64,000 nucleotides of DNA from NCBI GenBank assembly GCA_963695675.1, contig CAVOGY010000002.1:159491-223490 (forward strand). The letters are read 5' to 3'. The notes under the pieces were generated by a model that was not told the origin of the DNA, ran no database searches, and worked only from the letters and a program-made list of their open reading frames with translations. The stretch comes from an uncultured Solirubrobacterales bacterium (lineage in GTDB: Bacteria; Actinomycetota; Thermoleophilia; Solirubrobacterales; 70-9). Within the stretch, counting starts at the first letter, position 1; every line of letters starts with the position of its first letter. The translations under genes were made by a program, and so were the position numbers. Of the stretch, positions 16,045 through 43,059 are shown piece by piece.

Positions 16045-16176
16045 GGCGCAGCAAATGTGTGGGGTTTGCCTATTGTGCGACAGCGGCCGGGGAGGATAGG
16101 TTGCCGCTGCTCGAAGCTTGTGACCTCGGTGGCGTGAGAATCAGCACGTCTACGAGGAGATAGAGATAGACCGCCA

Positions 16177-17622: not shown

Positions 17623-17674
17623 CTACGCGCGAAGCCGGAGGGAGTAGAGTCGATCCGTTTGGCGAGGAGGTTGC

Positions 17675-18025: not shown

Positions 18026-18026
18026 G

Positions 18027-18179: not shown

Positions 18180-18182
18180 CGA

Positions 18183-18683: not shown

Positions 18684-18692
18684 GCTGAGCTC

Positions 18693-19406: not shown

Positions 19407-19441
19407 GCGTGGTGGCACCACCTGTGAAGGAGGTCTCCCGG

Positions 19442-19624
19442 ATGCCCCGTCAATACAAGTGCCTGGACGCCGGCTGCGGGGCGACCATCGTCGCCCCCGA
19501 CGAGCAGGCGCTGGTGGAGGCGGTGCAGCGGCACATGGCGGAGGAGCACGACAGCTTCGAGCTCGAGGACGTGATCATCGACATGTCCACCGAGCTCGAG
19601 GGGGACGGCGAGGAGGAGGGGTGA
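19442..19624 (+). CDS. 60-aa small protein (DUF1059-like)
   Basis: GAAGGAGG RBS. Translation is MPRQYKCLDAGCGATIVAPDEQALVEAVQRHMAEEHDSFELEDVIIDMS... Its stop overlaps the next start (GTGATGG). Confidence 0.6.
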   Translation: MPRQYKCLDAGCGATIVAPDEQALVEAVQRHMAEEHDSFELEDVIIDMSTELEGDGEEEG

Positions 19625-23177: not shown

Positions 23178-24137
23178 TCAGGCGTGGAGCGCGGAATCCG
23201 CGCCGGTCACGTTCGGCGGATGCCGGTCGTGCGGATCGATGCCGGCACCGATCTCGGCTCGAGTCGCGACCATGTGGTAGAGCAGCAGGGTCTGGGCGAG
23301 GGCGAGCGACTCCGAGCGGTGCAGGTCGGTCCCGATCGTGAACTCCCCGAGCCGGTGGGCGCGGAGGTGGCTCGCGTGCTGCATCCGCGTCCAGACGGCG
23401 TCCTCGAGCTCGGCGGCGAGCTTGGGGTCCGTGTCGCCCGGGATCCTGAGGAGCGACTCGTGTTCGCGGCGGACCAGGGTCGGGCCGTCCCCGTCGGGTA
23501 GGAGAAAGGGGGAGAGGTCGGGATGCCTGAGCGTGTCCCGCAGGATCAGGTCCGCATCGAGCTGCTCCGGGTCGCTGCTCCTGGTCGGGGCGAACGAGAC
23601 GATGATGTCGGCGAGTCGCCGCTGGGGGCGGATGTACTGCTCGACATCCCCCTCCCGGCGATCGAGCTCGGCGATCACCTCGTGGGTGGTGTAGCCCCGA
23701 CGCGTGCAGTCGCGGGTCAGCTTCCAGGTCCGGCGCAGCTCCTCGGGCGGGGCCAGGAAGACCCTGATGTCATGGTCGGCGCAGAGCTCCTCCGAGTGGA
23801 AGTTGAGCAGTCCCTCGACCACGACGAAGGGGTTGGGGCGGACGTACTCCGGTGGGCCGAGGGTCCCGCTGCGATGGTCGTAGGTGGGCTTCAGCACCGG
23901 CTCTCGGTTGCGGAGGTGCGCGAGGTGCTGACCGAGGATCTCGAGATGGTTTGCGGCCGGATTCAGAGGGGTGATGCCGAGCTCGGCTCGCTGCTGGCGC
24001 CCGTACCGGTGATAGTCGTCGCCGCTGATGTACGAAACGCGCTCACGCCCGCCGAGGACGCGGACCACGCCTCGGGTAAACGTCGTCTTCCCGGCGGCGG
24101 AATCTCCGACGACTCCGAGGACGACCGGACGAGTCAT
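23178..24137 (-). CDS. prk: phosphoribulokinase (PRK/uridine-kinase family)
   Basis: P-loop GDSAAGKTT. PRK-like blocks are ISGDDYHRY, LKPTYDHRSGTLGPPEYV, VVVEGLL and YIRPQRRLADII. The start was set at MTRPVVLG to avoid overlapping the next gene. Confidence 0.8.
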   Translation of the reverse strand: MTRPVVLGVVGDSAAGKTTFTRGVVRVLGGRERVSYISGDDYHRYGRQQRAELGITPLNPAANHLEILGQHLAHLRNREPVLKPTYDHRSGTLGPPEYVRPNPFVVVEGLLNFHSEELCADHDIRVFLAPPEELRRTWKLTRDCTRRGYTTHEVIAELDRREGDVEQYIRPQRRLADIIVSFAPTRSSDPEQLDADLILRDTLRHPDLSPFLLPDGDGPTLVRREHESLLRIPGDTDPKLAAELEDAVWTRMQHASHLRAHRLGEFTIGTDLHRSESLALAQTLLLYHMVATRAEIGAGIDPHDRHPPNVTGADSALHA

Positions 24138-24183
24138 CCGGGGAAGGATGCCAGACCGGCGGCCACCCGCCGCCGGCGGGCTC

Positions 24184-25203
24184 TCAGGCGCTGGTTGCGC
24201 TCCGTGGCTCGACGACGGGCGCTCGTGAGCCGTTCTCACGCTCCTCGATCAGGTCGATCTTGGCCAACAGGTGCTCGGCCATTCGCAGCGACGCCTGGTC
24301 GATCAGGCGGCCATCGAGCGAGACTGCGCCACTACCCGCCCTGCCCGCCTCCTCCATCGCGGCCATGATCCGGCGGGTCCGCGAGACCAGGCGGTCTGAC
24401 GGGGAGAAGACCTGGTTGGCGAGCTCAACCTGGCTTGGATGGATGCACCACTTGCCCTCGAAGCCGAGGATGGATGCTCGGCGCGCGGCGACCAGATAGC
24501 CCTCGGCATCCCCGAAGTCCCCGAACGGGCCGTCGATCGGCCTCAGTCCGTGTGCGCGGCAGGTGACCGCGATTCGAGCCAGCGGGTAATGCCATTGATC
24601 GCCCCAATGGAGCTCTCTGCTCACCTCCCCATCCTCGTTCGGATCGGTGAGCACGGCGTAGCCGGCGTCCGAGCCACCGATCGAGGCCGTGTGGCTCTCG
24701 ATCGAGGCCGCGTAGTCCGCGACGCCGAAGATCAGCGCCTCTAGCCGCTCCGGGGAGCTGGCGGCGATCTCGTCGAGGTTGACCATTCCGGACGCGGTCT
24801 CGATCAGCGCCGAGATCCCGATTGGCTTCTCGATCCCGACGGCTTCCTCGATCTGGGTCAGGAGGGTCGCCACCAGATGGATGTCGCCCGCCGATCCGGC
24901 CTTCGGGATCAGGACCGTGTCGAGCCATTCTCCGCTCTGCTCGACGACGTCGACGATGTCGCGGTAGCAATAGTGGGTGTCGAGCCCGTTGATTCTCACC
25001 GTCACCGCGCAGCCGGTCCAGTCGAGTTCGTTGAGGGCCGCGATCACATTCCGCCTCGCCTCGGGCTTGTCGTCGGGGGCCACCGCGTCCTCGAGATCGA
25101 GCATGACCACGTCGGCGCCTAGTCCAGGCGCCTTCTCGAGCATTCGCATGTTGGTGCCGGGGACGCAGAGCTCGCTGCGATGCAACCGCACTGGAATCGT
25201 CAT
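24184..25203 (-). CDS. mcl: HpcH/HpaI-CitE family lyase, malyl-CoA lyase-like
   Basis: 339 aa. CitE/Mcl-type N-terminus (RSELCVPGTNMRMLEKAPGLGADVVMLDLEDAV) and the block GFEGKWCIHPSQV. Substrate specificity is inferred from family and context only. Confidence 0.7.
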   Translation of the reverse strand: MTIPVRLHRSELCVPGTNMRMLEKAPGLGADVVMLDLEDAVAPDDKPEARRNVIAALNELDWTGCAVTVRINGLDTHYCYRDIVDVVEQSGEWLDTVLIPKAGSAGDIHLVATLLTQIEEAVGIEKPIGISALIETASGMVNLDEIAASSPERLEALIFGVADYAASIESHTASIGGSDAGYAVLTDPNEDGEVSRELHWGDQWHYPLARIAVTCRAHGLRPIDGPFGDFGDAEGYLVAARRASILGFEGKWCIHPSQVELANQVFSPSDRLVSRTRRIMAAMEEAGRAGSGAVSLDGRLIDQASLRMAEHLLAKIDLIEERENGSRAPVVEPRSATSA

Positions 25204-25437: not shown

Positions 25438-26892
25438 ATGATGGCCGCCAAGAACGAGCCCGAGGTGCCCAGCGAGGTCGAGGCCGCACTCTCCTCGCCG
25501 AAGATCGAGCCCGCTCCGCAGACCCTCGAGGAGGCGCGCGCGGCTCCTGGACGCGCGGAGAAGATCGCCGAGATCGAGAAGCGGATCGAAAGCGAGGGGA
25601 TCGAGTACGTCTTCTTCCAGCAGATCTCGATCAGTGGCCACATCAACGGCAAGGGGGTGGTGGCGAGCTGGTTCCCGAAAGTGGCCGCGCGCGGCTACCA
25701 GCTTGTCTACGGGGCGACCGCCGACCTGTTCACTGACCGTGAGGGCAACTACATCGGCTTCGGGCCACAGGAGTCGGAACTCGCTGCGATGGCCGACCTC
25801 GACACCTTCGAGCGGCTGCCGTGGGACCCGCGTGTGGCGCGGGTCTACTGCGACTGCTACGACACCGAGACGGGCGAGTTGCTCGACGCGGACCCGCGCC
25901 AGAACCTGAAGCGGGTTGCCCACGACATCGAGGAGGAGCTCGGCTACGCCTTCCTCTGCGGGATCGAGCCGGAGATGATGTGGATGAAGATCCCGGAGCC
26001 GGGCGAAGAGCCCGAGGGCGTCACCAAGCCCTGGTGCTACCACATCAACCAGTTCGAGCAGCTGCAGCCCGTGATCCTCGACGTGATCGCCTACGGCAAG
26101 GCGATGGGCCTCGACATGAGCTACGGCGACCATGAGGACGCCCCCGGGCAGCTGGAGCTCAACTTCCGCTTCGACCGCGCCGTGCGGACCGCGGACAACA
26201 TCAGCACCTACCGCCAGATCTGCAGCGCGGTGGGGCGCAAGCACGGCCTCCACGCTTCATTCATGCCGAAGCCGTTCACGGGTGTGTCCGCGAACGGACA
26301 CCACCATCACTTCACGCTGCTCGATGAGAGTGGCAACAACGTCTTCCACGACCCGGACGGACCGGCGCAGCTGTCCGAGATCGGCCGGCGGTTCATGGGT
26401 GGGATCCTCGACCACTTCCGGGCCCTGGTCTGCATCGGCTCGCCTACCGTGAACTCCTACAAGCGGATGTGGGACTTCGGCTTCTGGGCGCCGGTCTACA
26501 AGAACTACGGCTGGCAGAACCGCACCTGCACGGTTCGTGTCGCCAGCGGAGGCCGCTTCGAATTCCGTGGGGTGGACTCCTCCTGCAACCCGTACCTGAC
26601 CCAGGCCGCGCTGTTGAGCGCAGGACTGGACGGGGTGCGCCGCGAGCTCGACCCAGGTCCGCCCCAGCAGCGGAACACCTACGACCTGCTTGCCGAGGGC
26701 GCCGAGTTCGAGCGCGTGCCCGATCATCTCGGCGAGGCGCTGGGTGCCCTCGAGGCCGACGAGGTCGTGCGCGGGGCGATGCCGGGCCGACTCTACGATG
26801 TGTTCATGCACTACAAGCGCGACGAGTGGGAGCGCTACATGGCTGCGGTGACCGACTGGGAGCGCCAGCAGTACCTGGACGTCATGCCATGA
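25438..26892 (+). CDS. divergent glutamine-synthetase-family protein (module 1)
   Basis: GS catalytic-domain blocks are HEDAPGQLELNF, FMPKPF, NSYKR and NRTCTVRV. The ATP/metal loop reads ANGHHHHFTLLD rather than GNGCHMHMSLWD as in the paralog at 41674. GGAAGGAG RBS; ATG at 25438 or 25441. Confidence 0.85.
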   Translation: MMAAKNEPEVPSEVEAALSSPKIEPAPQTLEEARAAPGRAEKIAEIEKRIESEGIEYVFFQQISISGHINGKGVVASWFPKVAARGYQLVYGATADLFTDREGNYIGFGPQESELAAMADLDTFERLPWDPRVARVYCDCYDTETGELLDADPRQNLKRVAHDIEEELGYAFLCGIEPEMMWMKIPEPGEEPEGVTKPWCYHINQFEQLQPVILDVIAYGKAMGLDMSYGDHEDAPGQLELNFRFDRAVRTADNISTYRQICSAVGRKHGLHASFMPKPFTGVSANGHHHHFTLLDESGNNVFHDPDGPAQLSEIGRRFMGGILDHFRALVCIGSPTVNSYKRMWDFGFWAPVYKNYGWQNRTCTVRVASGGRFEFRGVDSSCNPYLTQAALLSAGLDGVRRELDPGPPQQRNTYDLLAEGAEFERVPDHLGEALGALEADEVVRGAMPGRLYDVFMHYKRDEWERYMAAVTDWERQQYLDVMP

Positions 26893-26911
26893 CCTCGGTG
26901 GGTGGTCGACC

Positions 26912-27841
26912 GTGTGCGGCATAGCGGGGATCATTTACCGGAACGGCAACGGGCAGGAGAAGGTGGGGCGCGACATGACCCGGATGCTCCAGGCGATGAA
27001 GCACCGGGGCCCCGACTCCACCGGCTTTGCGCTGTACCGCGGGGGCGGCGACACCTACGTGATGCACGTGAAGCTGAGCGAGCCGACCGAGCACGACCCC
27101 GAGCTCGAGCGGCGCATGCAGCGGCAGCGGGGCGAGGTCGAGACGCGCATGCGCGCGGCGGGCGCCCGGATCGAGGAGATCAAGGAGGCGCCTCGCACGA
27201 TGACGATCATCTTCGGCTTCGAGGGCGATCTCAAGCTGATCGCCGACGCCACCGAGCGTGTCCGCCACACCGAGGTGCTGTCGCTGGGGCGCTCGCTGGA
27301 GATCGTCAAGGACCTCGGCGACGCCGAGACCGTATCCGGCGGATACCACCTCGGTGAGTACACGGGCACCCACGCGATCGGCCACGCGCGCATGGCGACC
27401 GAATCGGACGTCGACATCGCCAACGCACACCCGTACTGGGCCTACCCGTTCCCCGATGTCGCCGTGGTCCACAATGGCCAGCTGACCAACTTCCACGACT
27501 GGCGCCGGCGGTTGACGCGGGCCGGCCACCGCTTCCAGTCCGAGTGTGACTCGGAGATCATCGCCGTCTACCTCGCCGCGCAGATGAGCCAGGGCCGGAC
27601 GCTCGAGGAGGCGATGCACCAGAGTCTCGAGGACCTCGACGGGGTCTTCACCTACATCTGCGTCACCGAGGACTCGCTCGGGGTGGCCAAGGACGAGCTC
27701 GGCGCCAAGCCGCTGGTGCTCTACGAGGACGACGACCTGGTGGCCCTCGCTTCCGAGGAGATCGCGATCCGCCAGGTGCTCGACCGCGAGATCGAGACCC
27801 ACGACCCCTATGAGGGCGAGGTGCGCGTATGGACCAGGTGA
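26912..27841 (+). CDS. class-II (Ntn) glutamine amidotransferase, GlxB/MgsA-like (module 1)
   Basis: The mature N-terminus would be Cys (MCGIAGII). It has the HARMATES block and is a paralog of 43060-43968. Confidence 0.85.
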   Translation: MCGIAGIIYRNGNGQEKVGRDMTRMLQAMKHRGPDSTGFALYRGGGDTYVMHVKLSEPTEHDPELERRMQRQRGEVETRMRAAGARIEEIKEAPRTMTIIFGFEGDLKLIADATERVRHTEVLSLGRSLEIVKDLGDAETVSGGYHLGEYTGTHAIGHARMATESDVDIANAHPYWAYPFPDVAVVHNGQLTNFHDWRRRLTRAGHRFQSECDSEIIAVYLAAQMSQGRTLEEAMHQSLEDLDGVFTYICVTEDSLGVAKDELGAKPLVLYEDDDLVALASEEIAIRQVLDREIETHDPYEGEVRVWTR

Positions 27842-28614
27842 GCGAGCAGCCTCGCATGGATGAACGCGGCCTCGTCGAGCTCGACGACTCGATTCCGAAG
27901 GCGGCGAAGATCGATGGACAAAGCGCGGTGATCGAGGCACGCGAGATGACCACGCGCAAGATCAACGCGGAGCTGCGCTGGCTGATCTATGAGCAGGGCG
28001 TCGCCGAGGTGACCGTGCGCGATCCGAGCGCAAGGCACTCGCTCGGCGTCGCGATACTGGCCCGCTGCAGGATCCGGTTCGAGGGCAGCCTCGGCTACTT
28101 CGGCTGCGGGCTGATCGACGGTCCGGAAGTCGAGATCACCGGGCGGGTGGGCTGGTCGGTCGCCGAGAACATGATGTCCGGCGTGGTGGTGGTCGAGGAG
28201 AACGCCGGATCTCTGGCAGGCGCCGCGATTCGGGGGGGCGACCTCGTCATCAAGGGCGACGTCGGAGCCCGCACGGGAATCGACCAGAAGGGCGGCACGA
28301 TCATCGTGCTCGGAAACGCGGCCTCGATGACCGGCTTCATGATGCAGCGCGGACGCCAGATCATCCTCGGCGACGTCGGGCCCGGGCTCGGGGACTCCAT
28401 GTACGACGGCACGATCTACGTCGGGGGCAAGATCGCCTCGCTCGGAATCGACTGCGTCGAGGGAGAGTGGACCGATGCCGACACCGAGCTGGTCGAGCGC
28501 AAGTTCTCGATCTACGGGCTCGGAGCCCCGCCGAAGCTGCGCAAGCTCGTCTCCGGAAAGAAGCTCTACAACTATGACAACCTCGAACCCAGCGAGCGAA
28601 AGCTCGTTCTCTAG
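27829..28614 (+). CDS. GXGXG-motif (glutamate synthase alpha C-terminal domain-like) protein, MgsB-like (module 1)
   Basis: Beta-helix repeats read GYFGCG, NMMSGVVVVEENAG, GGDLVIKGDVGARTG and GGTIIVLGNA. It overlaps the previous gene by 13 nt. Confidence 0.85.
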   Translation: MDQVSEQPRMDERGLVELDDSIPKAAKIDGQSAVIEAREMTTRKINAELRWLIYEQGVAEVTVRDPSARHSLGVAILARCRIRFEGSLGYFGCGLIDGPEVEITGRVGWSVAENMMSGVVVVEENAGSLAGAAIRGGDLVIKGDVGARTGIDQKGGTIIVLGNAASMTGFMMQRGRQIILGDVGPGLGDSMYDGTIYVGGKIASLGIDCVEGEWTDADTELVERKFSIYGLGAPPKLRKLVSGKKLYNYDNLEPSERKLVL

Positions 28615-28624
28615 GAGGACCGCG

Positions 28625-30085
28625 ATGGCGGATCAGAAACAGCAGGCATCCGGGGAGGCTCCTGCCAGGCGCGAGGTGCTCGGCCGAAGTCAGATCTTCA
28701 CGCCGGAGGTGATCAACGACATCCACATGAAGGCGGAGCTCGGGCGCTACCGGATGCGCGGCTTCTCGATGTTCAAGAAGCTTCCCAGCTGGGACGAGCT
28801 GATCTTTCTTCCCGGGACGCTGACGCGCTTCGTGATCGAGGGCTACCGCGAGAAGTGCGACACCAGGACGGTGCTGGGCAGCCGCTTCGCCAAGAATCCC
28901 CTCGAGCTCGACATCCCGGTCTACATCACCGGAATGAGCTTCGGCGCGCTGTCCATCGAGGCGAAGATGGCGCTCGCCAAGGGGGCCTCGATGGCCGGGT
29001 CGGCGACCTGCTCGGGAGAGGGGGGAATGATCCCTCCGGAGCGCGACCTCTCGACCAAGTGGTACTACCAGGTGATCCAGAGCCGCTACGGCTTCAATCC
29101 CCACCACCTGATGCTGGCCGACGGCGTCGAGTTCTTCATCGGGCAGGGCTGCAAGGTCGGCGTGGGCGGCCACCTGATGGGTCAGAAGGTGACGGAGCAG
29201 GTCGCCGAGATGCGCAGCCTGCCCGCCGGGATCGACCAGCGGTCGCCGGCGCGTCACCCGGACTGGCTCGGGCCCGATGACCTCTCGCTGAAGGTGCAGG
29301 AGACCCGGGAGGCGACCAACTACGAGGTCCCCATCCAGCTCAAGCTCGGCGCGGCACGCGTCTACGACGACGTTCGAATGGCCGCCAAGTGCGGCCCGGA
29401 CATCATCTATCTGGACGGAGCCGAGGGCGGCACCGGCGCCGGTCCCCACATCGCGGCTGAGGAGACCGGAATCCCGTTGCTCGCCGCCATTCCCGAGGCG
29501 CGTCGGGCGCTCGAGGACGTCGGCCTCCCCGACGAGGTCGACCTCGTGGTCGCGGGCGGGATCCGCAACGGCGGCGATATCGCCAAGTGCCTTGCGCTCG
29601 GCGCGGACGCGGTCGCGATCGGCCACTCCGCCCTGATGGCGCTCAACTGCAACAAGGAGATCCCGGGCGTGACCGACTATGAGGGCACGGTCGGCGTGCC
29701 GGCGGGGCAGTGCTACCACTGCCACACGGGCCGGTGCCCGGTTGGGATCACTACCCAGGACCCCGAGCTCCGGAAGCGGCTCGACGTCGACGCGGCGGCC
29801 CAGCGGGTGTTCAACTTCCTGCACACCCTGACGCTCGAGGTGCAGATGCTCGCCCGGGCCTGTGGCAAGACCAACGTCCACAGCCTCGAGCCCGAGGACC
29901 TTGCGGCGCTCACGGTCGAGGCCTCGGCCATGGCGCGGGTGCCGCTGGCGGGCACGGACTACGTCCCCGGCGTCAGCGAGGAGCGCGCGCTGGACGAGAT
30001 CCGCACCCTGCTCGACCAGTATCTGGAGAACCCGGTGGACTACATCCCGGATTCGGCCCCAACCGCTGCGGAGCGAGGCGAGTGA
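28625..30085 (+). CDS. FMN-dependent glutamate-synthase-domain protein, GlxD/MgsC-like, retaining a Cys-rich Fe-S-type motif (module 1)
   Basis: GltS FMN-domain blocks are [23 protein letters not shown] and DGAEGGTGA. The motif CYHCHTGRCPVGITTQDPELR is present. TAGGAGG RBS before ATG 28625. Confidence 0.9.
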   Translation: MADQKQQASGEAPARREVLGRSQIFTPEVINDIHMKAELGRYRMRGFSMFKKLPSWDELIFLPGTLTRFVIEGYREKCDTRTVLGSRFAKNPLELDIPVYITGMSFGALSIEAKMALAKGASMAGSATCSGEGGMIPPERDLSTKWYYQVIQSRYGFNPHHLMLADGVEFFIGQGCKVGVGGHLMGQKVTEQVAEMRSLPAGIDQRSPARHPDWLGPDDLSLKVQETREATNYEVPIQLKLGAARVYDDVRMAAKCGPDIIYLDGAEGGTGAGPHIAAEETGIPLLAAIPEARRALEDVGLPDEVDLVVAGGIRNGGDIAKCLALGADAVAIGHSALMALNCNKEIPGVTDYEGTVGVPAGQCYHCHTGRCPVGITTQDPELRKRLDVDAAAQRVFNFLHTLTLEVQMLARACGKTNVHSLEPEDLAALTVEASAMARVPLAGTDYVPGVSEERALDEIRTLLDQYLENPVDYIPDSAPTAAERGE

Positions 30086-30525
30086 CCCGCGGCGACCACG
30101 TGCGTGAGCCCGAGAAGGTCGTCTCGATCGACGCCGAGTACCTCTCGGGCAAGCGCTTCCCGTATCAGGAGGACATCTCGCTGGTCGAGGACATCGACCT
30201 CCAGGCGGCGACCCCCGGCAATGATCTGAACTGGCTCGAGGACGTCGAGCTGCTCGAGGAGGAGGGCACGCCGGCCGTCTTCGACCGCTACTCGAACTCG
30301 TTCCTGAGGATCTACTTCCCGATCCCGGAAGGTCGCGAGGACGAGATCGCCCGCAAGGTGCTGATCGCCCACCTGACCTCCGGCAACTCCTATGGCATCC
30401 GGCTCAAGCGACCGCACGCCAAGTTCCCCCAGCCCGAGCTGGGTCCCTGGGTCGACGGGTCCCAGACCGTCGGCGAGGACTGGAGGCCCCAGGTGCTCGA
30501 GGGCTGGGAGCCCCCGGAGCACTGA
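30082..30525 (+). CDS. orphan acidic 147-aa protein, no family recognised (module 1)
   Basis: The GTG start overlaps the previous stop (GTGA). Third codon positions are G/C-rich. Translation is VTRGDHVREPEKVVSIDAEYLSGKRFPYQEDISLVEDIDLQ...VLEGWEPPEH. The next gene starts 5 nt downstream. Confidence 0.55.
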   Translation: MTRGDHVREPEKVVSIDAEYLSGKRFPYQEDISLVEDIDLQAATPGNDLNWLEDVELLEEEGTPAVFDRYSNSFLRIYFPIPEGREDEIARKVLIAHLTSGNSYGIRLKRPHAKFPQPELGPWVDGSQTVGEDWRPQVLEGWEPPEH

Positions 30526-30530
30526 CGCCG

Positions 30531-31820
30531 ATGCCGGCCGTGCCCGAGTCGGCGCGCCACCTGGTGATTGGCGCGGGCGTTCACGGGCTGTCCACCGCCT
30601 GGCACCTTGCCGCGGCGGGGGAGGAGGCTCTGGTCGTCGACAAATCGATGGTCGCGGCCGGGGCGTCGGGAATCGCCTGCGGGGTGATCCGGAACAACTA
30701 CTTCCAGCCCGCGATGTCGGATCTGATCGCCGCCTGCGTCGAGATCTGGGAATCCGACCCCGACGCGTTCCACTATCACGGGTCCGGCTACGTCGCCCTG
30801 GGCCCGCCGGCCCAGGAGGAGGAGCTGGCCCAGGTCGCCGATCGTCACCGTGGGATCGGCTATCCGTCGGAGCTCTACACCGGCGAGGACGAGGTCGCCG
30901 CCCACATGCGCGGCATGTTCGGCGACTGGCGTGCGGAGGGCCTGACGGTATGCCTCCATGAGCACGCCGGCGGTTTCGCCTTCAACCGCGAGTCCATGCT
31001 CGGGCTCGCCGACAAGGCCCGCGGCGCCGGCGCGACGATCCTGGAAGGAATCGAGGTCACCGGGTTCTCCTTCGACGGCTCTGGCGCCGTCAGCGGCGTG
31101 CAGACGGCCGCCGGGGAGGTGCAGGTCGATCAGGTCGTGGTCGCCGTCGGCCCGTGGATCGCGTCGCTCTGGGAGATGCTGGGTCAGCCCGGCCGCATCG
31201 ACGTTCGCAGTCCGGACGGCTCGCTGGAGCGCGATCTACCGATGTGGACCTACTGGTACTTGCAGGAGGGAGAGGTGGCGCTGCCGCCCTCGACGCTGAC
31301 GACGGACGACGGCCTCGAGTCGCCGGTGCTGCACGTCGACTCCCACCGTCCGCTGCTCGATGACGACGGCGGGCTGATCACCGATCAGCCCTGGGGCATC
31401 TACGTGAAGCCGGACCGCCGGACGATCCAGGGCGGCGCCCAGCCCCTGACCGTCGGCCAGAGCTTCGAAGTGGACCCCTATCCGACCGGCAGCGTGGAGC
31501 CGGGTTTCCCGGACCTCTGGTGCGCGGCGCTCTCTCACTGCCTGGAGCGCTTCCGAGGCTGCCGCGGCAGCTACGTGCAGGCGCGGTCCGGGGGAGTCGG
31601 GGCCTTCAGCCCCGACAATTTCCCGATCTTCGATCGGATGCTCCCCAACGTGTACGTCGCGGCCGACTCGAACCACGGCTACAAGATGATCGCGGTCGGG
31701 CGTGAGATCGCCCGGGAGCTTCGGGGCGAGCACTCCTCGCTCCTCCATCCGTTCCGCTTCGAGCGCTTCGAGACCGGCGAGCTGCACCCGGTTTCGAGCA
31801 GCCCCTACCCGTGGAGCTAG
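30531..31820 (+). CDS. FAD-dependent oxidoreductase, DAO family (sarcosine-oxidase-beta-like), copy 1 (module 1)
   Basis: Dinucleotide fold (LVIGAGVHGLSTAWHLA). 429 aa, ending SSPYPWS. Clear paralog of 31915-33186. Confidence 0.85.
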   Translation: MPAVPESARHLVIGAGVHGLSTAWHLAAAGEEALVVDKSMVAAGASGIACGVIRNNYFQPAMSDLIAACVEIWESDPDAFHYHGSGYVALGPPAQEEELAQVADRHRGIGYPSELYTGEDEVAAHMRGMFGDWRAEGLTVCLHEHAGGFAFNRESMLGLADKARGAGATILEGIEVTGFSFDGSGAVSGVQTAAGEVQVDQVVVAVGPWIASLWEMLGQPGRIDVRSPDGSLERDLPMWTYWYLQEGEVALPPSTLTTDDGLESPVLHVDSHRPLLDDDGGLITDQPWGIYVKPDRRTIQGGAQPLTVGQSFEVDPYPTGSVEPGFPDLWCAALSHCLERFRGCRGSYVQARSGGVGAFSPDNFPIFDRMLPNVYVAADSNHGYKMIAVGREIARELRGEHSSLLHPFRFERFETGELHPVSSSPYPWS

Positions 31821-31914
31821 CCGTGAGCTCCGACCGGCTTCGCCATCAGACCGCGCCCGTAGCGGCCGCCATCATCAGTCGCGACCGCTTCGCGGTCGCT
31901 CGAAGGAGAGCGGC

Positions 31915-33186
31915 CTGACGGGCGCTAGCCATGTCGTCATCGGCGGCGGCGTCCACGGCCTCTCCGCCGCCTGGCGCCTGGCAGAGCGCGGCGCCGACGT
32001 GCTGGTGCTGGAGAAGGACCGGATCGGCGCCGGAGCCTCCGGCATCGCTGGAGGGATCGTGCGCAACTACTACCGCTCCCCCGCGGTCACCGACCTGATC
32101 CGGCAATCGGTTGAGATGTTCGAGGCGGACACGAGCGGATACGGCTTCCGGCAGGTCGGCTACCTCGCTGCCGTGCCCGAGGCACAGGTCGAGGACCTGG
32201 TCGCGATCCGCAAGCAACACGAGGACGCGGGGTATGAGTCTGAGCTGGTCGTCGGGGCGCAGGCCTGTCGCGAGTACCTGACCTGGACCTGGCCGGACTG
32301 GGAGGCACCCGTGGAGGCTGTGCTCTACGAGAGCAGGGGAGGCTGGGCGGACGCGATGCAGACGGTGCGCTACCTGGCCGAGCGGGCTCGAGCCTGCGGT
32401 GCGCGAATCGTGGAGGGCATCGAGGTGACGGGGTTCGAGCTTGGCCCCGGTGGCGTTGAGGCCGTGGTCACCTCCGGCGGAGGAATCGTCTGCGAAGCCG
32501 TGGTCGCGGCGCCCGGTCCATGGGCGGCCCGCGTCTGGGAGATGCTCGGCCAGCCCCCGGAGGTCGAGATCGGCGGAGGGAATGCGCGAGACCTGATCTC
32601 CTACTGGAAGGCGCAGGAGGGCCAGTTCGCGCTTCCGGGCACCGGGCTCGGGGGCCGCGCCGGCCGGGAGGCTCCCGTCGTTCACCTCGACCAGACGGGC
32701 GGGCTGCGCTCCGATCGCGACGGGCGAGATTTGCTGCCGGGCGCCTGGGGCATCTACTTCCACATGGGCCGGACCGGGACCGGTGTGACCGGCGGCGGGC
32801 TCCCCGTCCTGATCTCCGAGCCGGAGCTCGATCCGTACGGCCCCGCGAATCCGGCGCACGCGGCCGAGCCGGCGTTCGCCGAGTTCTTCGAGTCCGGGCT
32901 GGCGGTCGCCTTCGGGCGCTTCCGCGGACGCAGCGGCGAGTGGCAGGTCACGCCGGCGGGCGGGATCGTGGCCCACACCCCGGACAACTATCCGGTGTGC
33001 GACTGGGTGCTGCCGAACGCCTACGCGATCGTGGACTCGGGCCACGGCTTCAAGATGCTCGCGCTGGGGCGCCTGGCCGCGGACGACGTCCTCGACGGCG
33101 CACCGGCCCTCGACGCCTACAGGCTGTCCCGCTTCGCCCGGGGCGAGACCCACCTCGCCTCCTCGGGCCCATACCCATGGACCTGA
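31915..33186 (+). CDS. FAD-dependent oxidoreductase, DAO family, copy 2 (module 1); apparent CTG start
   Basis: VVIGGGVHGLSAAWRLA, ending SSGPYPWT. The only in-frame ATG/GTG/TTG is at 31702, 119 nt inside the previous gene. CTG 31915 sits 6 nt after GAAGGAGAG and gives an N-terminus collinear with the paralog. Confidence 0.7.
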   Translation: MTGASHVVIGGGVHGLSAAWRLAERGADVLVLEKDRIGAGASGIAGGIVRNYYRSPAVTDLIRQSVEMFEADTSGYGFRQVGYLAAVPEAQVEDLVAIRKQHEDAGYESELVVGAQACREYLTWTWPDWEAPVEAVLYESRGGWADAMQTVRYLAERARACGARIVEGIEVTGFELGPGGVEAVVTSGGGIVCEAVVAAPGPWAARVWEMLGQPPEVEIGGGNARDLISYWKAQEGQFALPGTGLGGRAGREAPVVHLDQTGGLRSDRDGRDLLPGAWGIYFHMGRTGTGVTGGGLPVLISEPELDPYGPANPAHAAEPAFAEFFESGLAVAFGRFRGRSGEWQVTPAGGIVAHTPDNYPVCDWVLPNAYAIVDSGHGFKMLALGRLAADDVLDGAPALDAYRLSRFARGETHLASSGPYPWT

Positions 33187-33199
33187 GTTCCCGTCCGAT

Positions 33200-33213
33200 C
33201 CCGGGCAACCGGG
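33200..33213. terminator. short GC hairpin between the convergent module-1 operon and the GntR gene
   Basis: CCCGG-GCAA-CCGGG within the 27-nt convergent gap. There is no U tract, so it is weak. Confidence 0.3.
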
Positions 33214-34008
33214 TCAGCCGCCGGCCCTGTCGTCCTCGTCCGGTGAGACCTGGAGGCTCCGCATCACGTGCAGATCGATGGAACCGGGCGCGAATACCTC
33301 GGTGGAGTACTGCACCGCCTGACCCTCGGCCAGGTGCATGACCTCGATCAGCTCCAGCGTGGCGGTGACCCGCGTCGCATCCAACGCCAGCCCCAGTCGG
33401 CTGTCGGGCTCCACCAGCCGCGGACGCACATGCGTTCTCGCGAACGCGATCGGGACCTCGTGGTCGACCAGGACGTCGAGCACCATCTTGCCCGACTCGA
33501 GCGCCGAGCGGAGCTCGTCGGGCGGAGGCAGGGCGATGTCTGGATGGACGGTGTCGCGCATGTGGGCGGCCACCGTGCCGTCGGCGACCAGGGCCCGCTG
33601 GATCAGCGGCGCCCGGACCCCCCTGCCGATTCCCAGCGCCTCGGCCACGTAGCCCGGTGTTCGCACCTGCTCGACGGACACGTTGCACGCGGTCAGCCGC
33701 TTGCCCTGGCGGCGTGCCAGCGAGGTGTACGACTCGAGTACCTCGAGGCCCTCGCTGAAGGCTGCGGGAAGCGCCACCCTGCCCACGAAGGTGCCGCTGC
33801 CCTGTCTGCGGTTCACCTCGCCATTGCTCTCCAGCCGCTCCAGGGCCAGGCGCAGGGTTCCCCTTGAGACGCCGAGAGCGTAGGCCAGCTCCTTCTCGGG
33901 TGGCAGACGATCCCCGGGGCGAGCGCGGCCAGGCGCCAGCCGCTGGCGCAGCGCGGTCTCGGTCACATCCACCATCGAGGGTCGAGACACAGGCGCGAGC
34001 GTAGCCAT
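33214..34008 (-). CDS. GntR-family transcriptional regulator (HutC-like, UTRA-type effector domain suspected)
   Basis: wHTH reads LPPEKELAYALGVSRGTLRLALERLESNGEVNRRQGSGTFV. It is the last gene of the minus-strand sox-fhs-fch operon, 12 nt after fch. Confidence 0.85.
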   Translation of the reverse strand: MATLAPVSRPSMVDVTETALRQRLAPGRARPGDRLPPEKELAYALGVSRGTLRLALERLESNGEVNRRQGSGTFVGRVALPAAFSEGLEVLESYTSLARRQGKRLTACNVSVEQVRTPGYVAEALGIGRGVRAPLIQRALVADGTVAAHMRDTVHPDIALPPPDELRSALESGKMVLDVLVDHEVPIAFARTHVRPRLVEPDSRLGLALDATRVTATLELIEVMHLAEGQAVQYSTEVFAPGSIDLHVMRSLQVSPDEDDRAGG

Positions 34009-34020
34009 GTCCGCGGGCGC

Positions 34021-34647
34021 TCAGTCTTCCCTGGAATCCGCCGCGGTGTGGCTCGCGGGCGGGGTGCGATCAGCCGCCGTGCGGCTGGCCCGCGCTGCGA
34101 GATCCGCCGCCGCGCGCGCGCGTGCCGGGCGGGGATCCTCAGGGTCCCCGGCGAGGTTCGCCTCGACCAGCTGCGCGCAACCCAGTGCCGCCGCCGCGGC
34201 CAGCTCTCCGGCCACGACCGCGTCCGCCGTGAACGCCCAGTCTCCGGCGCCGGCGACCTCAGCGGCTCGCTCGGCGACCGCAGCGGCACCCTCGGCGATC
34301 GCCAGTGGCGGGTCGCTGGCTCGATCCAACGCCCTGGCATGTTCTCGCCCCTCGCTGGCCGTGGCCACCCGCGCATACGCCCGGGCATCCTCGTTGCCGG
34401 CCGCGAGCAGGCGCCCTCGCAGCTTGCCGGCTTGCTGGGCCAGCACGCGCATGCGGTCCGCGGCCTCGGCTCCGGTGCCACGGTTCTGCGCAGCAATCCG
34501 CTTTGCGGCCAGCGCGGCCGCGAGCTCGACGACGCCGGCGGCGGCCGCGGCGGTCAGCGCCGAGGCGACACCTGCAGCGGGGGGTTCCCCGGGCGAGGCC
34601 AGGTCTGCCAGGGCCTCCCCAACGCGTTGGCTGCCGAACTCGGCCAT
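34021..34647 (-). CDS. fch: cyclodeaminase/cyclohydrolase family protein (FTCD C-terminal type; methenyl-THF cyclohydrolase-like)
   Basis: 208-aa Ala-rich helical protein with PAAGVASALTAAAAAGVVELAA, characteristic of the family. It lies 9 nt downstream of fhs. Confidence 0.7.
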   Translation of the reverse strand: MAEFGSQRVGEALADLASPGEPPAAGVASALTAAAAAGVVELAAALAAKRIAAQNRGTGAEAADRMRVLAQQAGKLRGRLLAAGNEDARAYARVATASEGREHARALDRASDPPLAIAEGAAAVAERAAEVAGAGDWAFTADAVVAGELAAAAALGCAQLVEANLAGDPEDPRPARARAAADLAARASRTAADRTPPASHTAADSRED

Positions 34648-34656
34648 CGCTCAGGG

Positions 34657-36333
34657 CTAGAACAGCCCGACCGTCCGGCCCTCGGCGTCGACGTCCACGT
34701 TGTGGGCGGCGGGTGTCTTGCCCAAGCCCGGCATCTGCTGGATGGCGCCGCACAGGGGCACGAGCCAGCCGGCGCCGGTATAGGCGCGAACGTCCCGGAC
34801 CGGGAGCTGGAAACCGGTGGGGGCACCGAGCAGCTCGGGGTCTGCCGAGAGGGAGAGCGGGGTCTTGGCCATGCAGATCGGCAGATGGGCAAGGCCCTGG
34901 TCCGTGAACTGCCGGATCTTGCGCTCTGCCTCGAGGTAGTAGACGATTTCCGCGGCGCCGTAGATGCGCTCGCCGATCGCCTCGATCTTCGACTTGACGT
35001 CGTCGTCATCGTCGTAGAGAAGGCGGAGATCGTTTGGCCCGTCGCAAGCGTCGGCGACGGCCTCGGCCAGCTCGGCGGTTCCCTTGCCGCCCTCAGCGAA
35101 GCCGGTGCTGATCGCGGCCCCCGCCGCGCCCCCCTCTTCGGCGAGATGCCTGACCAGCTCAACCTCCTCGTCCGTGTCCTCCGGCCTGCGGTTGACGGCC
35201 ACTACGGCGGGCAATCCGAATTCCTCCACGATGCCCAGATGGCGATAGAGGTTGGCGATCCCGGCCTCGATCGCCTTCCGAGCCCGCGTCTTGCTCGCCC
35301 CTTCGGCCTCGTCGAGACCCCCATGGTGCTTCAGCGCCCGCACCGTCGCGACCAGGACCACTGCGCTGGGGCGGATCCCGCCCGCCCGGCAGACGATGTC
35401 GATGAACTTCTCCATCCCCATGTCCGAACCGAACCCGGATTCGGTGACGACGTAATCCCCGAGCTTCAGCCCAAGCAGGTCGGCGATCAGGGATGAGTTG
35501 CCGTGGGCGATGTTCGCGAACGGCCCGGCGTGCATCAGGCAGGGCTGCCCCTCGAGAGTCTGGATCAGGTTCGGCTTGATCGCATCCTTCAACAGGACGG
35601 TCATCGCTCCGGCTGCCCCCAGGTCGTCGGCGGTCACCGGCTCGCCCTCGTGGGAGTAGGCGGCGGTGACCTTTCCAAGCCGCTCGCGCAGGTCCTGGAC
35701 GTCGCGGGCGACGGCGAGGATCGCCATCACCTCGGAGGCGGCCGTGATATCGAACCCGCTCTCGCGGGGGTAGCCGTTGGCGGGGCCGCCGAGGCCGAGT
35801 GCCACCGCGCGCAGGGCCCGGTCGTTCATGTCGACTGCTCGCTTCCAGGTCACCCGGAGAGCGTCGATCTTGTGAGGGTTGCCGTGAAGGATCGACGCGT
35901 CGAGCAGGGCCGCGAGCAGATTGTTGGCTGCGCCGATCGCGTGAATGTCGCCGGTGAAGTGGAGGTTGAGGTCCTCCATGGGCACCACCTGGGCGAGCCC
36001 GCCGCCGGCGGCGCCGCCCTTGATTCCGAACACGGGACCGAGGGAGGGCTCCCTCAGGCAGAGGACCGGACTCTTGCCTATGTGGCCCAAGCCCTCCGTC
36101 AGCGCCACCGAGGTGGTGGTCTTTCCCTCGCCGGCCCTCGTCGGCGTCATACCGGCGACGCAGACGAGCTTGGCGTCCGGCCTGCCGGCGAGCCGGTCGA
36201 TCGCAGCGAGCGAGATCTTCGCCTTGTTTCGTCCGTAGGGCTCGATCTCGTCGGGCTCGAGTCCGACTCGCTCGCCGATCACGTCAATCGGTTCGAGCTG
36301 CGCTTCCTGGGCGATCTCGAGGCTGGTCTTCAT
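34657..36333 (-). CDS. fhs: formate--tetrahydrofolate ligase
   Basis: 558 aa. MKTSLEIAQEAQLEPI..., with the block PTRAGEGKTTTSVAL and collinearity over the full length. Confidence 0.95.
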   Translation of the reverse strand: MKTSLEIAQEAQLEPIDVIGERVGLEPDEIEPYGRNKAKISLAAIDRLAGRPDAKLVCVAGMTPTRAGEGKTTTSVALTEGLGHIGKSPVLCLREPSLGPVFGIKGGAAGGGLAQVVPMEDLNLHFTGDIHAIGAANNLLAALLDASILHGNPHKIDALRVTWKRAVDMNDRALRAVALGLGGPANGYPRESGFDITAASEVMAILAVARDVQDLRERLGKVTAAYSHEGEPVTADDLGAAGAMTVLLKDAIKPNLIQTLEGQPCLMHAGPFANIAHGNSSLIADLLGLKLGDYVVTESGFGSDMGMEKFIDIVCRAGGIRPSAVVLVATVRALKHHGGLDEAEGASKTRARKAIEAGIANLYRHLGIVEEFGLPAVVAVNRRPEDTDEEVELVRHLAEEGGAAGAAISTGFAEGGKGTAELAEAVADACDGPNDLRLLYDDDDDVKSKIEAIGERIYGAAEIVYYLEAERKIRQFTDQGLAHLPICMAKTPLSLSADPELLGAPTGFQLPVRDVRAYTGAGWLVPLCGAIQQMPGLGKTPAAHNVDVDAEGRTVGLF

Positions 36334-36355: not shown

Positions 36356-37573
36356 TCAATGCGAGACTGCCGCCGCGCCCACCTCGGAGACCAGCCGGTC
36401 TTCATAGAAGCGCTCGAGCGCGAACGACTCGATCAGCTCGGGGACCTCGTCAGTGGCGATCAGCTCGGCCATCGTCTTGCCGACGATCGGCGCGGCCTTG
36501 AAGCCGTAGGTGCCCCAGCCGGCGCTGAGCAGGAAGCCGTCGACCTCCGTCCGGCCGAGGATCGGGCTGTAGTCGGGGGTGATGTCGCAGAGTCCCGCCC
36601 AGCTGCGGAGCATGCGGGCGCGCTCCAGTTGGGGGAAGAGCTCGAGGGTGTGGCGGGAGCACTCCTGCAGGAAGGTGAGTGTCCCCTGCTGGCGGTAGGT
36701 GGTCCAGGGCTCGATCTCGGCACCGATCAGGAACTCCCCGCGGTCGGTCTGAGAGATGTAGACGTGCATCTGCGAGGAGACGACGACGATGTCGAGCAGG
36801 GGCTTCAGCGCCTCGGTTACGAAGGCCTGCAGGATGTGAGTGGTGATCGGAAGCTGGATACCGGCCAGCGCGGCGACGGTCGAGCTCCAGCCGGCGGTGG
36901 CGCTGACGACCGTCCCGGCGTCGATCCTTCTGCCATCGGCGAGGGCGACTCCGGTGGCACGACCGTTGGAGCGCTCGATCCCGGTGACCTGCCGGTACGG
37001 GTGGACCTCAGCGCCCGCCGCGTCGGCGGCGCTCGCCAGTCCCCACACGACCGCGTCGTGACGGATGATGCCGCCGGGCGGGTGGTAGAGCGCGCCCATC
37101 ACCGGATAGACGGCGTCTGGACTCAGCGCCATCGCCGGCGCCAGGCGTGCGATCTCCTTCGGGCCTATCACCCGGGAGTCGATCCCGGCCAGCCGGTTGA
37201 CCTCGGCTCGCTCGTTCATCACGAACATCGCCCGATCGGTGTGCGCCAGGGTCAGATGGCCCTGCTGCGAGAAGAGAAGGTTGAAGTGCAGCTCTGACGA
37301 GAGCCCCTCGTAGAGCCGTACCGAGGCGTCGTAGAACCGCGCCCCCTCCGGCGTCTTGTAGTTGGCACGCAGGATGGTCGTGTTGCGCCCGGCGGCGCCG
37401 GAGCCGATGTAGCCCTGCTCGAGCACGCAGACGTCCGTGATCCCGTGGTCGCGGGCCAGGTAGTAGGCGATCGCCAGCCCGTGCGAGCCGCCGCCGACGA
37501 TGACGACGTCGTAGCGGTCCTTGAGGTCCGGCGTCCGGCGCCACATGCGGCGCTTGCGGAAGAGGTCACGCAT
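36356..37573 (-). CDS. soxB: heterotetrameric sarcosine oxidase beta-subunit family (N-methylglutamate dehydrogenase subunit by context)
   Basis: YDVVIVGGGSHGLAIAYYLARDHG. 405 aa from MRDLFRKRRMW. The start overlaps the soxG stop. Confidence 0.9.
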   Translation of the reverse strand: MRDLFRKRRMWRRTPDLKDRYDVVIVGGGSHGLAIAYYLARDHGITDVCVLEQGYIGSGAAGRNTTILRANYKTPEGARFYDASVRLYEGLSSELHFNLLFSQQGHLTLAHTDRAMFVMNERAEVNRLAGIDSRVIGPKEIARLAPAMALSPDAVYPVMGALYHPPGGIIRHDAVVWGLASAADAAGAEVHPYRQVTGIERSNGRATGVALADGRRIDAGTVVSATAGWSSTVAALAGIQLPITTHILQAFVTEALKPLLDIVVVSSQMHVYISQTDRGEFLIGAEIEPWTTYRQQGTLTFLQECSRHTLELFPQLERARMLRSWAGLCDITPDYSPILGRTEVDGFLLSAGWGTYGFKAAPIVGKTMAELIATDEVPELIESFALERFYEDRLVSEVGAAAVSH

Positions 37574-38312
37574 GAACGCCCTCCGCGGTCCGTGCCTGGG
37601 CCTCCAGGGCCTTGACCCCGATTGCCCTGCCGCCCAGATGTCGCGCCGCGTCGACGAAGACAGTCCAGACGTAGTGCGCAAACCCGGATCCGAAGAGATG
37701 CAGGTACAGGTCGGCTCCCTGTCGCAGCATCATCCCGGGCGTCCGGGCTACCGAGACGGGGGCGAACTCTCCCTCGCCGAACCGATCCGGCCTGAGGTCG
37801 AGCGCCATCGTCCTGGCGAAGGTCTCACGGGCGAGGGGCCCGGTCACCGCGTTGGACCCGTAGGCCGCCGTCAGCTCGACCACCGAGGCGAACGGGGCGT
37901 CAGCGGCGGCTGCCTCGAGCCGGTCGCGCATCTGCCCCGTTCTCTCCGGCGGGGTCAGGGCCAGCACGCGCCCCATCGTGATCGGGCACCACCAAACCCC
38001 TTCGTGCAGCGTCGCCCGCCCCGGCGCCAGTGCGCCCCCGCCGGTGAGCTCCGCCACGATCGACGAGGCGATCCCGGGCTCCGCCTGGAGCTCCAACTTG
38101 CCTAGGAATGAGAGATCGGCGACCCCGACCGAGTCCCGGCGGGCGACCAGCTCGGCGCCCGGGTTCCCATAGTCGGTCACCACCCGCCAGCCGGCGCGCT
38201 CGGTGAAGTTCGCCCCCTGACTGCGATGGGTCCACTCGATCGGGCTGCGAAGCTCGGGCCGGGTCCCGTCCAGGGACTGGGCGGCGTCGGGGGCGAGGAA
38301 CTCGAAGCTCAT
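37566..38312 (-). CDS. soxG: sarcosine oxidase gamma-subunit family protein
   Basis: 248 aa; position and size fit SoxG. It is translationally coupled on both sides. The family call rests mainly on synteny. Confidence 0.7.
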   Translation of the reverse strand: MSFEFLAPDAAQSLDGTRPELRSPIEWTHRSQGANFTERAGWRVVTDYGNPGAELVARRDSVGVADLSFLGKLELQAEPGIASSIVAELTGGGALAPGRATLHEGVWWCPITMGRVLALTPPERTGQMRDRLEAAAADAPFASVVELTAAYGSNAVTGPLARETFARTMALDLRPDRFGEGEFAPVSVARTPGMMLRQGADLYLHLFGSGFAHYVWTVFVDAARHLGGRAIGVKALEAQARTAEGVHA

Positions 38313-43044: not shown

Positions 43045-43059
43045 GAACGAGGTTCACAG

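Follow-up and report, generated by a model that had tools for sequence, protein, structure and literature searches.

A conserved five-gene unit of Thermoleophilia, apparently an undescribed form of the glutamate-mediated methylamine pathway

The N-methylglutamate (NMG) pathway, composed of the ligase GmaS, the synthase MgsABC and the dehydrogenase MgdABCD, has been worked out by genetics in Methyloversatilis, Methylobacterium and Methylocella (PMC5023235, PMC7948447). A four-gene ligase and synthase architecture is also present in the GlnT-GlxBCD clusters of Rhizobium, Burkholderia and Acidithiobacillus, the ligases of which are annotated as type III glutamate--ammonia ligases (glnT). Here we describe a cluster of this kind, module 1, which occupies positions 25438–33186 of the window, i.e. 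the whole 64,000-nucleotide stretch that was analysed (contig CAVOGY010000002.1, assembly GCA_963695675.1, from an uncultured Solirubrobacterales bacterium; G+C ~68%). Its first five genes, GS1-GAT1-GXG1-FMN1-ORPH, are a conserved unit, and the module 1 type looks like an undescribed, Thermoleophilia version of the glutamate-mediated methylamine pathway type. Neither this cluster nor any methylamine genes of Thermoleophilia turned up in the literature that we searched, in agreement with a preliminary description of the same DNA that had called the system a candidate undescribed one.

Module 1 consists of seven plus-strand open reading frames (ORFs) with spacings of 19, -13, 10, -4, 5 and 94 nt. 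The close packing, spacings and Pfam domains all agree with the preliminary description, and the motifs that it quoted, including ANGHHHHFTLLD and GNGCHMHMSLWD, are all present. The components are as follows:

25438–26892, plus strand: GS1, a predicted GmaS-like gamma-glutamyl-amine ligase of 484 aa (Pfam Gln-synt_C, 316 bits)
26912–27841, plus strand: GAT1, a class-II (N-terminal nucleophile, Ntn) amidotransferase of 309 aa, MgsA/GlxB-like, N-terminus MCGI (Pfam GATase_6 and GATase_7)
27829–28614, plus strand: GXG1, a GXGXG beta-helix subunit of 261 aa, MgsB/GlxC-like, overlapping GAT1 by 13 nt (PF01493, 51 bits)
28625–30085, plus strand: FMN1, an FMN-binding subunit of 486 aa, MgsC/GlxD-like (Pfam Glu_synthase domain, 311 bits)
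30082–30525, plus strand: ORPH, an acidic orphan of 147 aa with no Pfam family, its GTG start overlapping the FMN1 stop (GTGA)
30531–31820, plus strand: DAO1, an FAD-dependent oxidoreductase of 429 aa with a predicted sarcosine-oxidase-like fold, tail SSPYPWS (Pfam DAO, 130 bits)
31821–31914, no strand: intergenic insert of 94 nt, with a hairpin GTCGCGACCGCTTCGCGGTCGC at 31878–31899 and GGAG 5′ of a CTG at 31915
31915–33186, plus strand: DAO2, a DAO1 paralog, 423 aa if CTG is the start, tail SSGPYPWT (Pfam DAO, 128 bits)

None of the seven proteins passes an NCBIfam cut-off. A promoter and terminator scan of module 1 gave no between-gene signals above chance, which leaves the one-operon question unaffected either way, and an Rfam scan found no riboswitch or other RNA.

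Module 1 resembles the NMG pathway in the order and domains of its ligase, amidotransferase, GXGXG and FMN genes, in its GmaS-type residues and in the sox/mgd, formate–tetrahydrofolate ligase (FTHFS) and formate dehydrogenase genes nearby. However, its proteins are 33–55% identical to the canonical ones, its ligase, altered in pocket, flap and loop, scores below the TIGR03105 cut-off, it has an obligate extra gene of 147 aa, and the oxidase that goes with it is not a four-subunit enzyme but a single DAO-family protein, or a pair of paralogs, ending in a PYPW tail. Unlike module 1, the GlnT-GlxBCD clusters have neither ORPH nor a DAO1-type gene.

To define what is conserved, we retained 80 loci from a one-genome-per-species scan with ORPH, which matched at least 593 stretches, and compared the window proteins with them by tblastn; counts out of 67 refer to the loci in which the sequence extends 4.8 kb or more upstream, and counts out of 52 to the full loci with 10 kb on either side. 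All 80 belong either to Thermoleophilia (Solirubrobacterales, Gaiellales, Thermoleophilaceae) or to metagenome-assembled genomes (MAGs) labelled just Actinomycetota or Actinomycetes. The ligase, GATase, GXGXG and FMN genes lie immediately 5′ of ORPH on the same strand in 67/67 loci, with median identities to the window of 75% (GS1), 67% (GAT1), 75% (GXG1), 87% (FMN1) and 79% (ORPH). The FMN-subunit stop is separated from the ORPH start by a median of -1 nt, and by 30 nt or less in 55 of 61 loci. The conserved unit is therefore of five genes, not seven: the gene-neighbourhood check suggested in the preliminary description holds for this core, but DAO1 is found within 10 kb of it in 37/52 full loci and DAO2 in 12/52, often divergently placed. 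The nearest locus (L005) is a Solirubrobacterales MAG flanked by the same set of genes, and a further contig (L087, ENA contig_15734) is 99.5% identical to window 27531–34820.

GS1 carries an N-terminal extension of ~36 aa, and scores GSI-alpha and GmaS structures near-equally. Its active site was read from HMMER alignments to B. subtilis glutamine synthetase (GS) and to GmaS structure 9qur, interpreted via the RhGmaS paper (PMC7948447), with RhGmaS numbering carried onto GS1 through the motif and not by direct alignment to 7CQL. Glutamine synthetase needs both Asp50′ and a flap Glu for ammonium binding and deprotonation (PMC7948447). GS1 has Tyr at the Asp50′ position (aligned with Asp53′ of the B. 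subtilis enzyme) and Trp350 at the Glu-flap position, as in 9qur. The equivalents of GmaS Asp177, Glu186 and Asn188 are found in DHEDAPGQLELN, those of Arg312 and Arg317 in W-x11-R-x4-R, and both motifs are kept in all GS1-type sequences; of the methylamine-pocket residues (Tyr147, Gln175, Glu179, Asn188 and Lys30′), equivalents of Tyr147, Glu179 and Asn188 are retained, whereas the site of Gln175 is changed. Since Asp50′ and the flap Glu are gone and the GmaS catalytic residues are present, GS1 is predicted to be a gamma-glutamyl-amine ligase rather than a glutamine synthetase. Family-wide features of the GS1 type are a changed Tyr-Gln-Ile site, a 5-residue deletion in the flap and a ~10-residue insertion in the Asp50′ loop. 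In the Gaiellales ligases of this type (~53% identical; e.g. L017, L041 and L045) SANGCHHNISLW stands where the window GS1 has SANGHHHHFTLL, and the second conserved His of NGxHxH is displaced or is Asn.

The domain set of the GAT1-GXG1-FMN1 trio is that of MgsABC/GlxBCD, for which we found no curated subunit models in NCBIfam, and GAT1 retains Cys1. Identity to the Aminobacter and Acidithiobacillus caldus homologs is 30–37% for GAT1 and GXG1 and 52–55% for FMN1, compared to 65–77% for FMN2, the FMN subunit of the second cluster in the window (module 2, below). With proteobacterial and Streptomyces homologs FMN2 shares 75–77% identity, against a maximum of 55% with any of them for FMN1; the A. 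caldus subunit is closer to FMN2 (65%) than to FMN1 (55%). The trio is also related to glutamate synthase (GltB/GltD, Fd-GOGAT), with which it shares homologous amidotransferase, FMN and GXGXG domains. Unlike that enzyme, it is split in three proteins, is without the central domain and has no GltD or ferredoxin partner, and its companion ligase is not a glutamine synthetase. A search of the PDB with FMN1 found no structure closer than GltB.

FMN1 has four invariant cysteines (342, 363, 366 and 371). In an alignment with A. brasilense GltB three of them, C342, C366 and C371, fall on Cys residues that we take to be its 3Fe-4S ligands C1102, C1108 and C1113, and the fourth, C363, lies within an 18-residue loop that is common to MgsC proteins and is an insertion relative to GltB. 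LNC..CYHCHTGRCP is kept without change in 57 Thermoleophilia FMN1-type sequences; at the same sites FMN2 and the MgsC proteins of Aminobacter pMET1 and Paracoccus aminophilus pAMI6 have Asp/Glu, Tyr, Trp and Asp. The glutamate-synthase-type Cys motif that the preliminary description had singled out is thus real, invariant and not in FMN2. The glnT-glxBCD FMN subunits of A. caldus, from a cluster with sox genes and folD, and of Burkholderia FXe9, from one with amt, have it too, which rules it out as a signature of module 1; it therefore marks a difference from module 2 and is not unique to module 1.

ORPH, which the preliminary description could not place, has no match in Pfam, NCBIfam or PHROGs, and a profile search against PDB sequences returned nothing below E = 0.1. 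It is acidic (29 D+E versus 15 K+R; third-position G+C 0.93) and contains neither Cys nor a cofactor motif. Its close homologs number 7838, nearly all of 147 aa, at the level of ~7,800 protein clusters at 90% identity; named sources are Solirubrobacterales or other Actinomycetota MAGs. Among 1.84 billion representatives, phmmer found a single tight family. Members that appeared divergent proved to be frameshifted fragments. The AlphaFold2 (AF2) model of ORPH alone has a predicted local distance difference test (pLDDT) score of 61, being confident for residues ~20–100 and below 50 for residues 1–16 and 104–147, and Foldseek found no match to it in the PDB at E < 0.3. No homolog or fold match of the protein was thus detected outside its own family. 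True fusions would be evidence of physical association; the apparent FMN1-ORPH and ORPH-oxidase fusions in the representative library were ruled out as out-of-frame read-throughs. ORPH is probably an extra, lineage-restricted subunit of the synthase complex.

DAO1 and DAO2 are 41% identical to each other. The unusual C-terminus that the preliminary description saw in the pair is a family trait, S-x-[SG]-PYPW[ST], found in 52/54 relatives. Against the soxB model TIGR01373 (cut-off 529 bits) DAO1 scores 70 and DAO2 52 bits. The DAO1 AF2 model has a mean pLDDT of 85, with the invariant tail below 50. Its top Foldseek match is the beta subunit of heterotetrameric sarcosine oxidase (TM 0.74–0.82), followed by the beta subunit of Pyrococcus horikoshii proline dehydrogenase, monomeric sarcosine oxidase, glycine oxidase, dimethylglycine dehydrogenase and N-methyltryptophan oxidase, all at ~20% identity. 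The nearest structures are oxidases of N-methyl or secondary amino acids throughout, and by predicted fold DAO1 comes nearest to the N-methyl amino acid oxidases of sarcosine-oxidase type. Similar to the sarcosine, dimethylglycine and N-methyltryptophan enzymes, DAO1 has an FAD-binding N-terminal half (fold TM 0.65–0.82); unlike them it passes no family cut-off, has no fused folate domain and carries the invariant PYPW tail, at ~16–21% identity. Many DAO1 homologs bear the JGI pipeline label ‘methylglutamate dehydrogenase subunit A’, an automatic name with no functional test behind it. DAO1 lies immediately downstream of the core in 18/71 loci and divergently, upstream of the ligase, in 14/52, and often is a few nt from ORPH or shares a promoter region with the core.

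DAO2 is found in Thermoleophilaceae and Gaiellaceae as well, with ortholog identities of 48–87%. Since DAO1 and DAO2 form separate ortholog groups, ~40% identical to each other, DAO2 is an old, patchily retained paralog. Its presence in just 12/52 loci means that the heteromeric DAO pair proposed in the preliminary description is not the general design. In relatives DAO2 starts with a GTG inside the terminal Pro-Trp codons of DAO1. In the window this overlapping start is lost to the 94-nt insert, which is missing from most relatives, and no ATG, GTG or TTG follows the DAO1 stop; the sole candidate is the CTG at 31915 behind GGAG, so the DAO2 start codon is uncertain. The insert is a palindromic element of ~90 nt, bounded by terminal inverted repeats. 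The window has a single copy and, among the loci compared for it, the element is found otherwise in L046 (11748–11825), where it sits at the same junction in the opposite orientation, and in L087, the near-copy of the window. In L087 one base is inserted in DAO2 (window 32732) and one in the neighbouring GntR gene (33532), and 14 of its 33 mismatches are in DAO2; either its long-read assembly is in error here or DAO2 is decaying in a sister strain.

The window contains a second cluster, module 2 (41674–46048), with the same four domains as the first four genes of module 1. Its ligase, GS2, passes TIGR03105 with 578.9 bits, and the cluster adjoins soxD-soxA-soxG-mgdA, then FTCD_C and FTHFS genes. 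This bears out the preliminary description, which had placed a gmaS-mgsABC-type module beside a four-subunit sox/mgd-type dehydrogenase and had called the first four genes of module 1 its paralogs. Identity between the modules is 33% (GS), 35% (GATase), 36% (GXGXG) and 53% (FMN), and the paralogy is old. These values, together with the separate wide spread of both types, rule out module 1 as a recent duplicate of module 2, and the amine pocket differs as well. Module-2-type ligases are widespread in Solirubrobacterales and share contigs with ORPH; in one MAG module 2 lies with mgd and FTHFS, 470 kb distant from module 1. Orthologs of both modules are 72–94% identical, side by side across Solirubrobacterales. 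The persistence of both types in the same genomes argues that their roles differ.

The surroundings of the core point to methylated amines. A sox/mgd gene, FTHFS, a trimethylamine N-oxide (TMAO) demethylase (Tdm) or a trimethylamine dehydrogenase (TMADH)-like gene lies within 10 kb in 40/52 full loci. In Gaiellales-type loci the module-1-type core adjoins sox/mgd genes, and in L038, L045, L069, L077 and L079 soxD-A-G-mgdA stands divergently beside a module-1-type ligase, in the position that module 2 has in the window. A TMAO demethylase lies beside the core in many loci, one Tdm representative passing the equivalog cut-off (1156 versus 1100 bits), and its co-neighbours are a flavin reductase, an acyl-CoA-dehydrogenase-fold oxygenase and an amino-acid permease. 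Recurrent neighbours elsewhere are a TMADH/dimethylamine dehydrogenase-like flavoprotein with electron-transfer flavoprotein, FTHFS, sox/mgd, Amt and other amine oxidases. In L062 (14140–17829) and ~12–16 other loci (e.g. L013, L014, L023, L052 and L053) Tdm occurs with the flavin reductase and acyl-CoA-dehydrogenase-fold protein, and not with a Tmm of the flavin-containing monooxygenase type; this pair may be a two-component amine monooxygenase that replaces Tmm/Dmm in Thermoleophilia.

Taken together, we favour with moderate confidence the reading that module 1 is a variant, specific to Thermoleophilia, of the glutamate-mediated (NMG-type) amine pathway. In this pathway, GS1 would use ATP to join a small amine, most likely a methylated one (methylamine, possibly dimethylamine), to the gamma-carboxyl of glutamate. 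GAT1-GXG1-FMN1, with ORPH as a fourth subunit, would free the amine from the amide and, at the FMN site, attach it to the 2-oxoglutarate/glutamate skeleton to give N-alkylglutamate. DAO1, and DAO2 where present, would then oxidise the N-alkyl C–N bond to yield glutamate and an aldehyde, which would enter the route of the neighbouring folate and formate genes. Because the GS1 catalytic residues are of GmaS type, passage from gamma-glutamyl amide to N-alkylglutamate is reasonable chemistry, and gamma-glutamyl amide, N-alkylglutamate and then oxidative dealkylation is the best-supported model. The preliminary description had proposed a parallel route of this kind for a different amine: we keep this chemistry as a proposal, but the context is one of methylated amines and not clearly of a different amine. 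The modules could differ in substrate (e.g. dimethylamine), in affinity or regulation, or in Fe-S redox coupling.

Several observations weigh against this reading. TIGR03105 (type III GS / GlnT-GmaS), the best NCBIfam model for GS1, gives it 346.6 bits against a cut-off of 469.6, and a Gaiella ligase of the GS1 type reaches 332.3. In the GS1 pocket Ser-Tyr-Gly (Ile-Gln-Gly in Gaiellales) replaces Tyr174-Gln175-Ile176 of GmaS, for which GS2 has Tyr-Ala-Thr. DAO1 is missing within 10 kb in 15/52 loci and DAO2 in 40/52, and the oxidase step is therefore not tied to these genes. A complete canonical module 2 with mgdABCD lies ~3–13 kb downstream, and module 1 could feed that MgdABCD dehydrogenase. 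Module 1 itself contains no alpha, gamma or delta sox-type subunits beside DAO1 and DAO2, as the preliminary description had it, but sox/mgd genes begin ~3 kb downstream; the window mgdA (36356–37681), beside soxG, soxA and soxD, is itself below the TIGR01373 cut-off (454 versus 529 bits). No tdm, tmm or dmm-type gene was found in the window. Finally, the textbook NMG synthase reaction is redox-neutral, and the FMN1 Cys ligands and ORPH are without a role in it.

We consider it unlikely that module 1 is a second methylamine module with the same function as module 2. In that case the core would make gamma-glutamylmethylamide and N-methylglutamate as module 2 does and pass the product to MgdABCD, e.g. 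for nitrogen scavenging under PucR/Amt, and DAO1 and DAO2 would be mere neighbours, amino-acid oxidases acting on another substrate. This would be consistent with the GmaS catalytic residues retained in GS1, with the variable presence and position of the DAO genes and with the finding that both module types adjoin Amt/PucR or sox/mgd, varying by genome. It fits poorly with the retention of both modules side by side, with orthologs at 72–94% and a mutual identity of just 33–53%, with the different amine pocket and flap of GS1, and with the link of DAO1 to the core in 37/52 loci, often through close spacing or a shared promoter region.

It is rather less likely that the five-gene core is a new amine-assimilating complex and not a plain NMG synthase. 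Such a complex could take two forms. In one, a closed redox loop, electrons from N-alkylglutamate would pass via DAO1/DAO2 to the FMN1 Fe-S centre and drive reductive amination of 2-oxoglutarate, with ORPH and the PYPW tails serving for docking. In the other, gamma-glutamyl-dimethylamide would be converted to N,N-dimethylglutamate, from which the two DAO paralogs would strip the methyls in turn, by analogy with dimethylglycine and sarcosine dehydrogenases, which take methyl groups off successively. If true, this dimethylamine version would fill a step that has no obvious gene beside tdm in the Thermoleophilia loci examined.

We give little credence to a route like that of PuuA, PuuB and PuuD, in which the DAO flavoproteins would oxidise the gamma-glutamyl-amine made by the ligase directly, as PuuB oxidises gamma-glutamylputrescine, a class-I GATase/C26 hydrolase would free glutamate and the trio would have a side role. 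The Puu pathway likewise combines a GS-like ligase, a DAO-family oxidase and a class-I amidotransferase-like hydrolase in one neighbourhood; a class-I GATase/peptidase C26-like gene immediately precedes GS1 in close relatives (window copy 18693–19406), and in some loci ORPH is followed by flavin amine oxidases of other kinds (Amino_oxidase, a second DAO type). However, GS1 scores 273 bits against a cut-off of 650 for the gamma-glutamylputrescine synthetase model NF045547, the Puu pathway has no glutamate-synthase-like trio, the invariant part of our loci is the trio plus ORPH and the variable part the oxidases, and the nearest folds to DAO1 use N-substituted amino acids.

Similarly improbable is redox-coupled assimilation in the manner of glutamate synthase, in which the FMN1 Fe-S centre would take electrons, perhaps from DAO1/DAO2 via ORPH or the PYPW tail, and the trio would reductively aminate 2-oxoglutarate with released amine or ammonia instead of carrying out a redox-neutral NMG exchange. 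The four invariant FMN1 cysteines, three of them at the presumed GltB 3Fe-4S positions, speak for it, as do the DAO tail, invariant yet predicted to be disordered as would suit a docking peptide, and the low-confidence ORPH termini in isolation. The Cys motif is, however, also found in ordinary glnT-glxBCD clusters that have neither ORPH nor DAO1; ORPH lacks Cys or a cofactor motif; no GltD-type subunit or ferredoxin gene lies in or beside module 1; and DAO1 is not near the core in 15/52 loci.

Ordinary ammonium assimilation by a glutamine synthetase and a split archaeal-type glutamate synthase is highly improbable: relatives do have Amt and a PucR-type regulator upstream, GS1 matches GSI-alpha structures about as well as GmaS and FMN1 keeps its Fe-S ligands, but GS1 has lost Asp50′ and the flap Glu and has GmaS Asp177 instead, an electron-donor subunit is not present and the surroundings are C1 and methylated-amine genes, and we reject a true GS-GOGAT pair on the GS1 active-site residues.

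Flanking module 1 are the following genes:

14146–20598, mixed strands: PucR/GAF regulator (minus), Amt (plus), a small ORF, a class-I GATase/peptidase C26-like gene (plus) and an R2-like ligand-binding oxidase (R2lox)-like gene (plus), from Pfam and NCBIfam matches
33214–34008, minus strand: GntR/UTRA-family regulator with GntR and UTRA domains, convergent with module 1, a candidate local regulator

A homolog of the GntR/UTRA regulator lies within 10 kb of the core in 21/52 loci, and a block of the upstream type immediately precedes GS1 in L001, L003, L004, L006, L009, L020 and L031. The PucR-type regulator, which has GAF domains, is divergent from Amt (14146–17622), and the pair flanks module-1-type genes elsewhere and module-2-type genes in L085. 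The di-metal R2lox-like protein (19459–20598; 155 bits versus a cut-off of 194) lies ~5 kb upstream of module 1. Its relatives travel with both module types, being found between GAT1 and GXG1 in L003 (6529–7746) and L004 (6574–7704) and immediately upstream of the module-2 ligase in another MAG (L086, 8867–9853).

Among the C1 and amine genes of the window there is also a minus-strand phosphoribulokinase (23178–24239; 300 bits versus an NCBIfam cut-off of 236), with a class-V aminotransferase, a LysR regulator and a CitE/malyl-CoA-lyase-like protein as neighbours. This block is not at that position in close relatives, where the Amt/GATase genes immediately precede GS1. Following module 2, window 46054–47254 encodes an NAD-dependent formate dehydrogenase (NF005750, 493 versus 329 bits, profile positions 117–384), the N-terminal part of which is apparently in another frame (ORF 46054–46614), which suggests a frameshift due to assembly error or a pseudogene. 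A serine-cycle island was not established, as the aminotransferase and the CitE/malyl-CoA-lyase-like protein are below all specific cut-offs and the candidate ‘2-hydroxyacid dehydrogenase’ is an NAD-formate dehydrogenase.

Thermoleophilia (Solirubrobacterales and Gaiellales) rank among the soil bacteria that are most abundant and least cultured. Hundreds of their genomes, from soil, carry the five-gene set, as a rule together with one or two flavoproteins that resemble sarcosine oxidase. The interest of the system lies in this abundance, combined with an obligate subunit that has no recognisable fold and with conserved Fe-S ligands. If module 1 does process methylated amines, annotation by canonical gmaS models would overlook or mislabel a large part of the soil sink for these volatile nitrogen compounds, since GS1 falls below the family cut-off.

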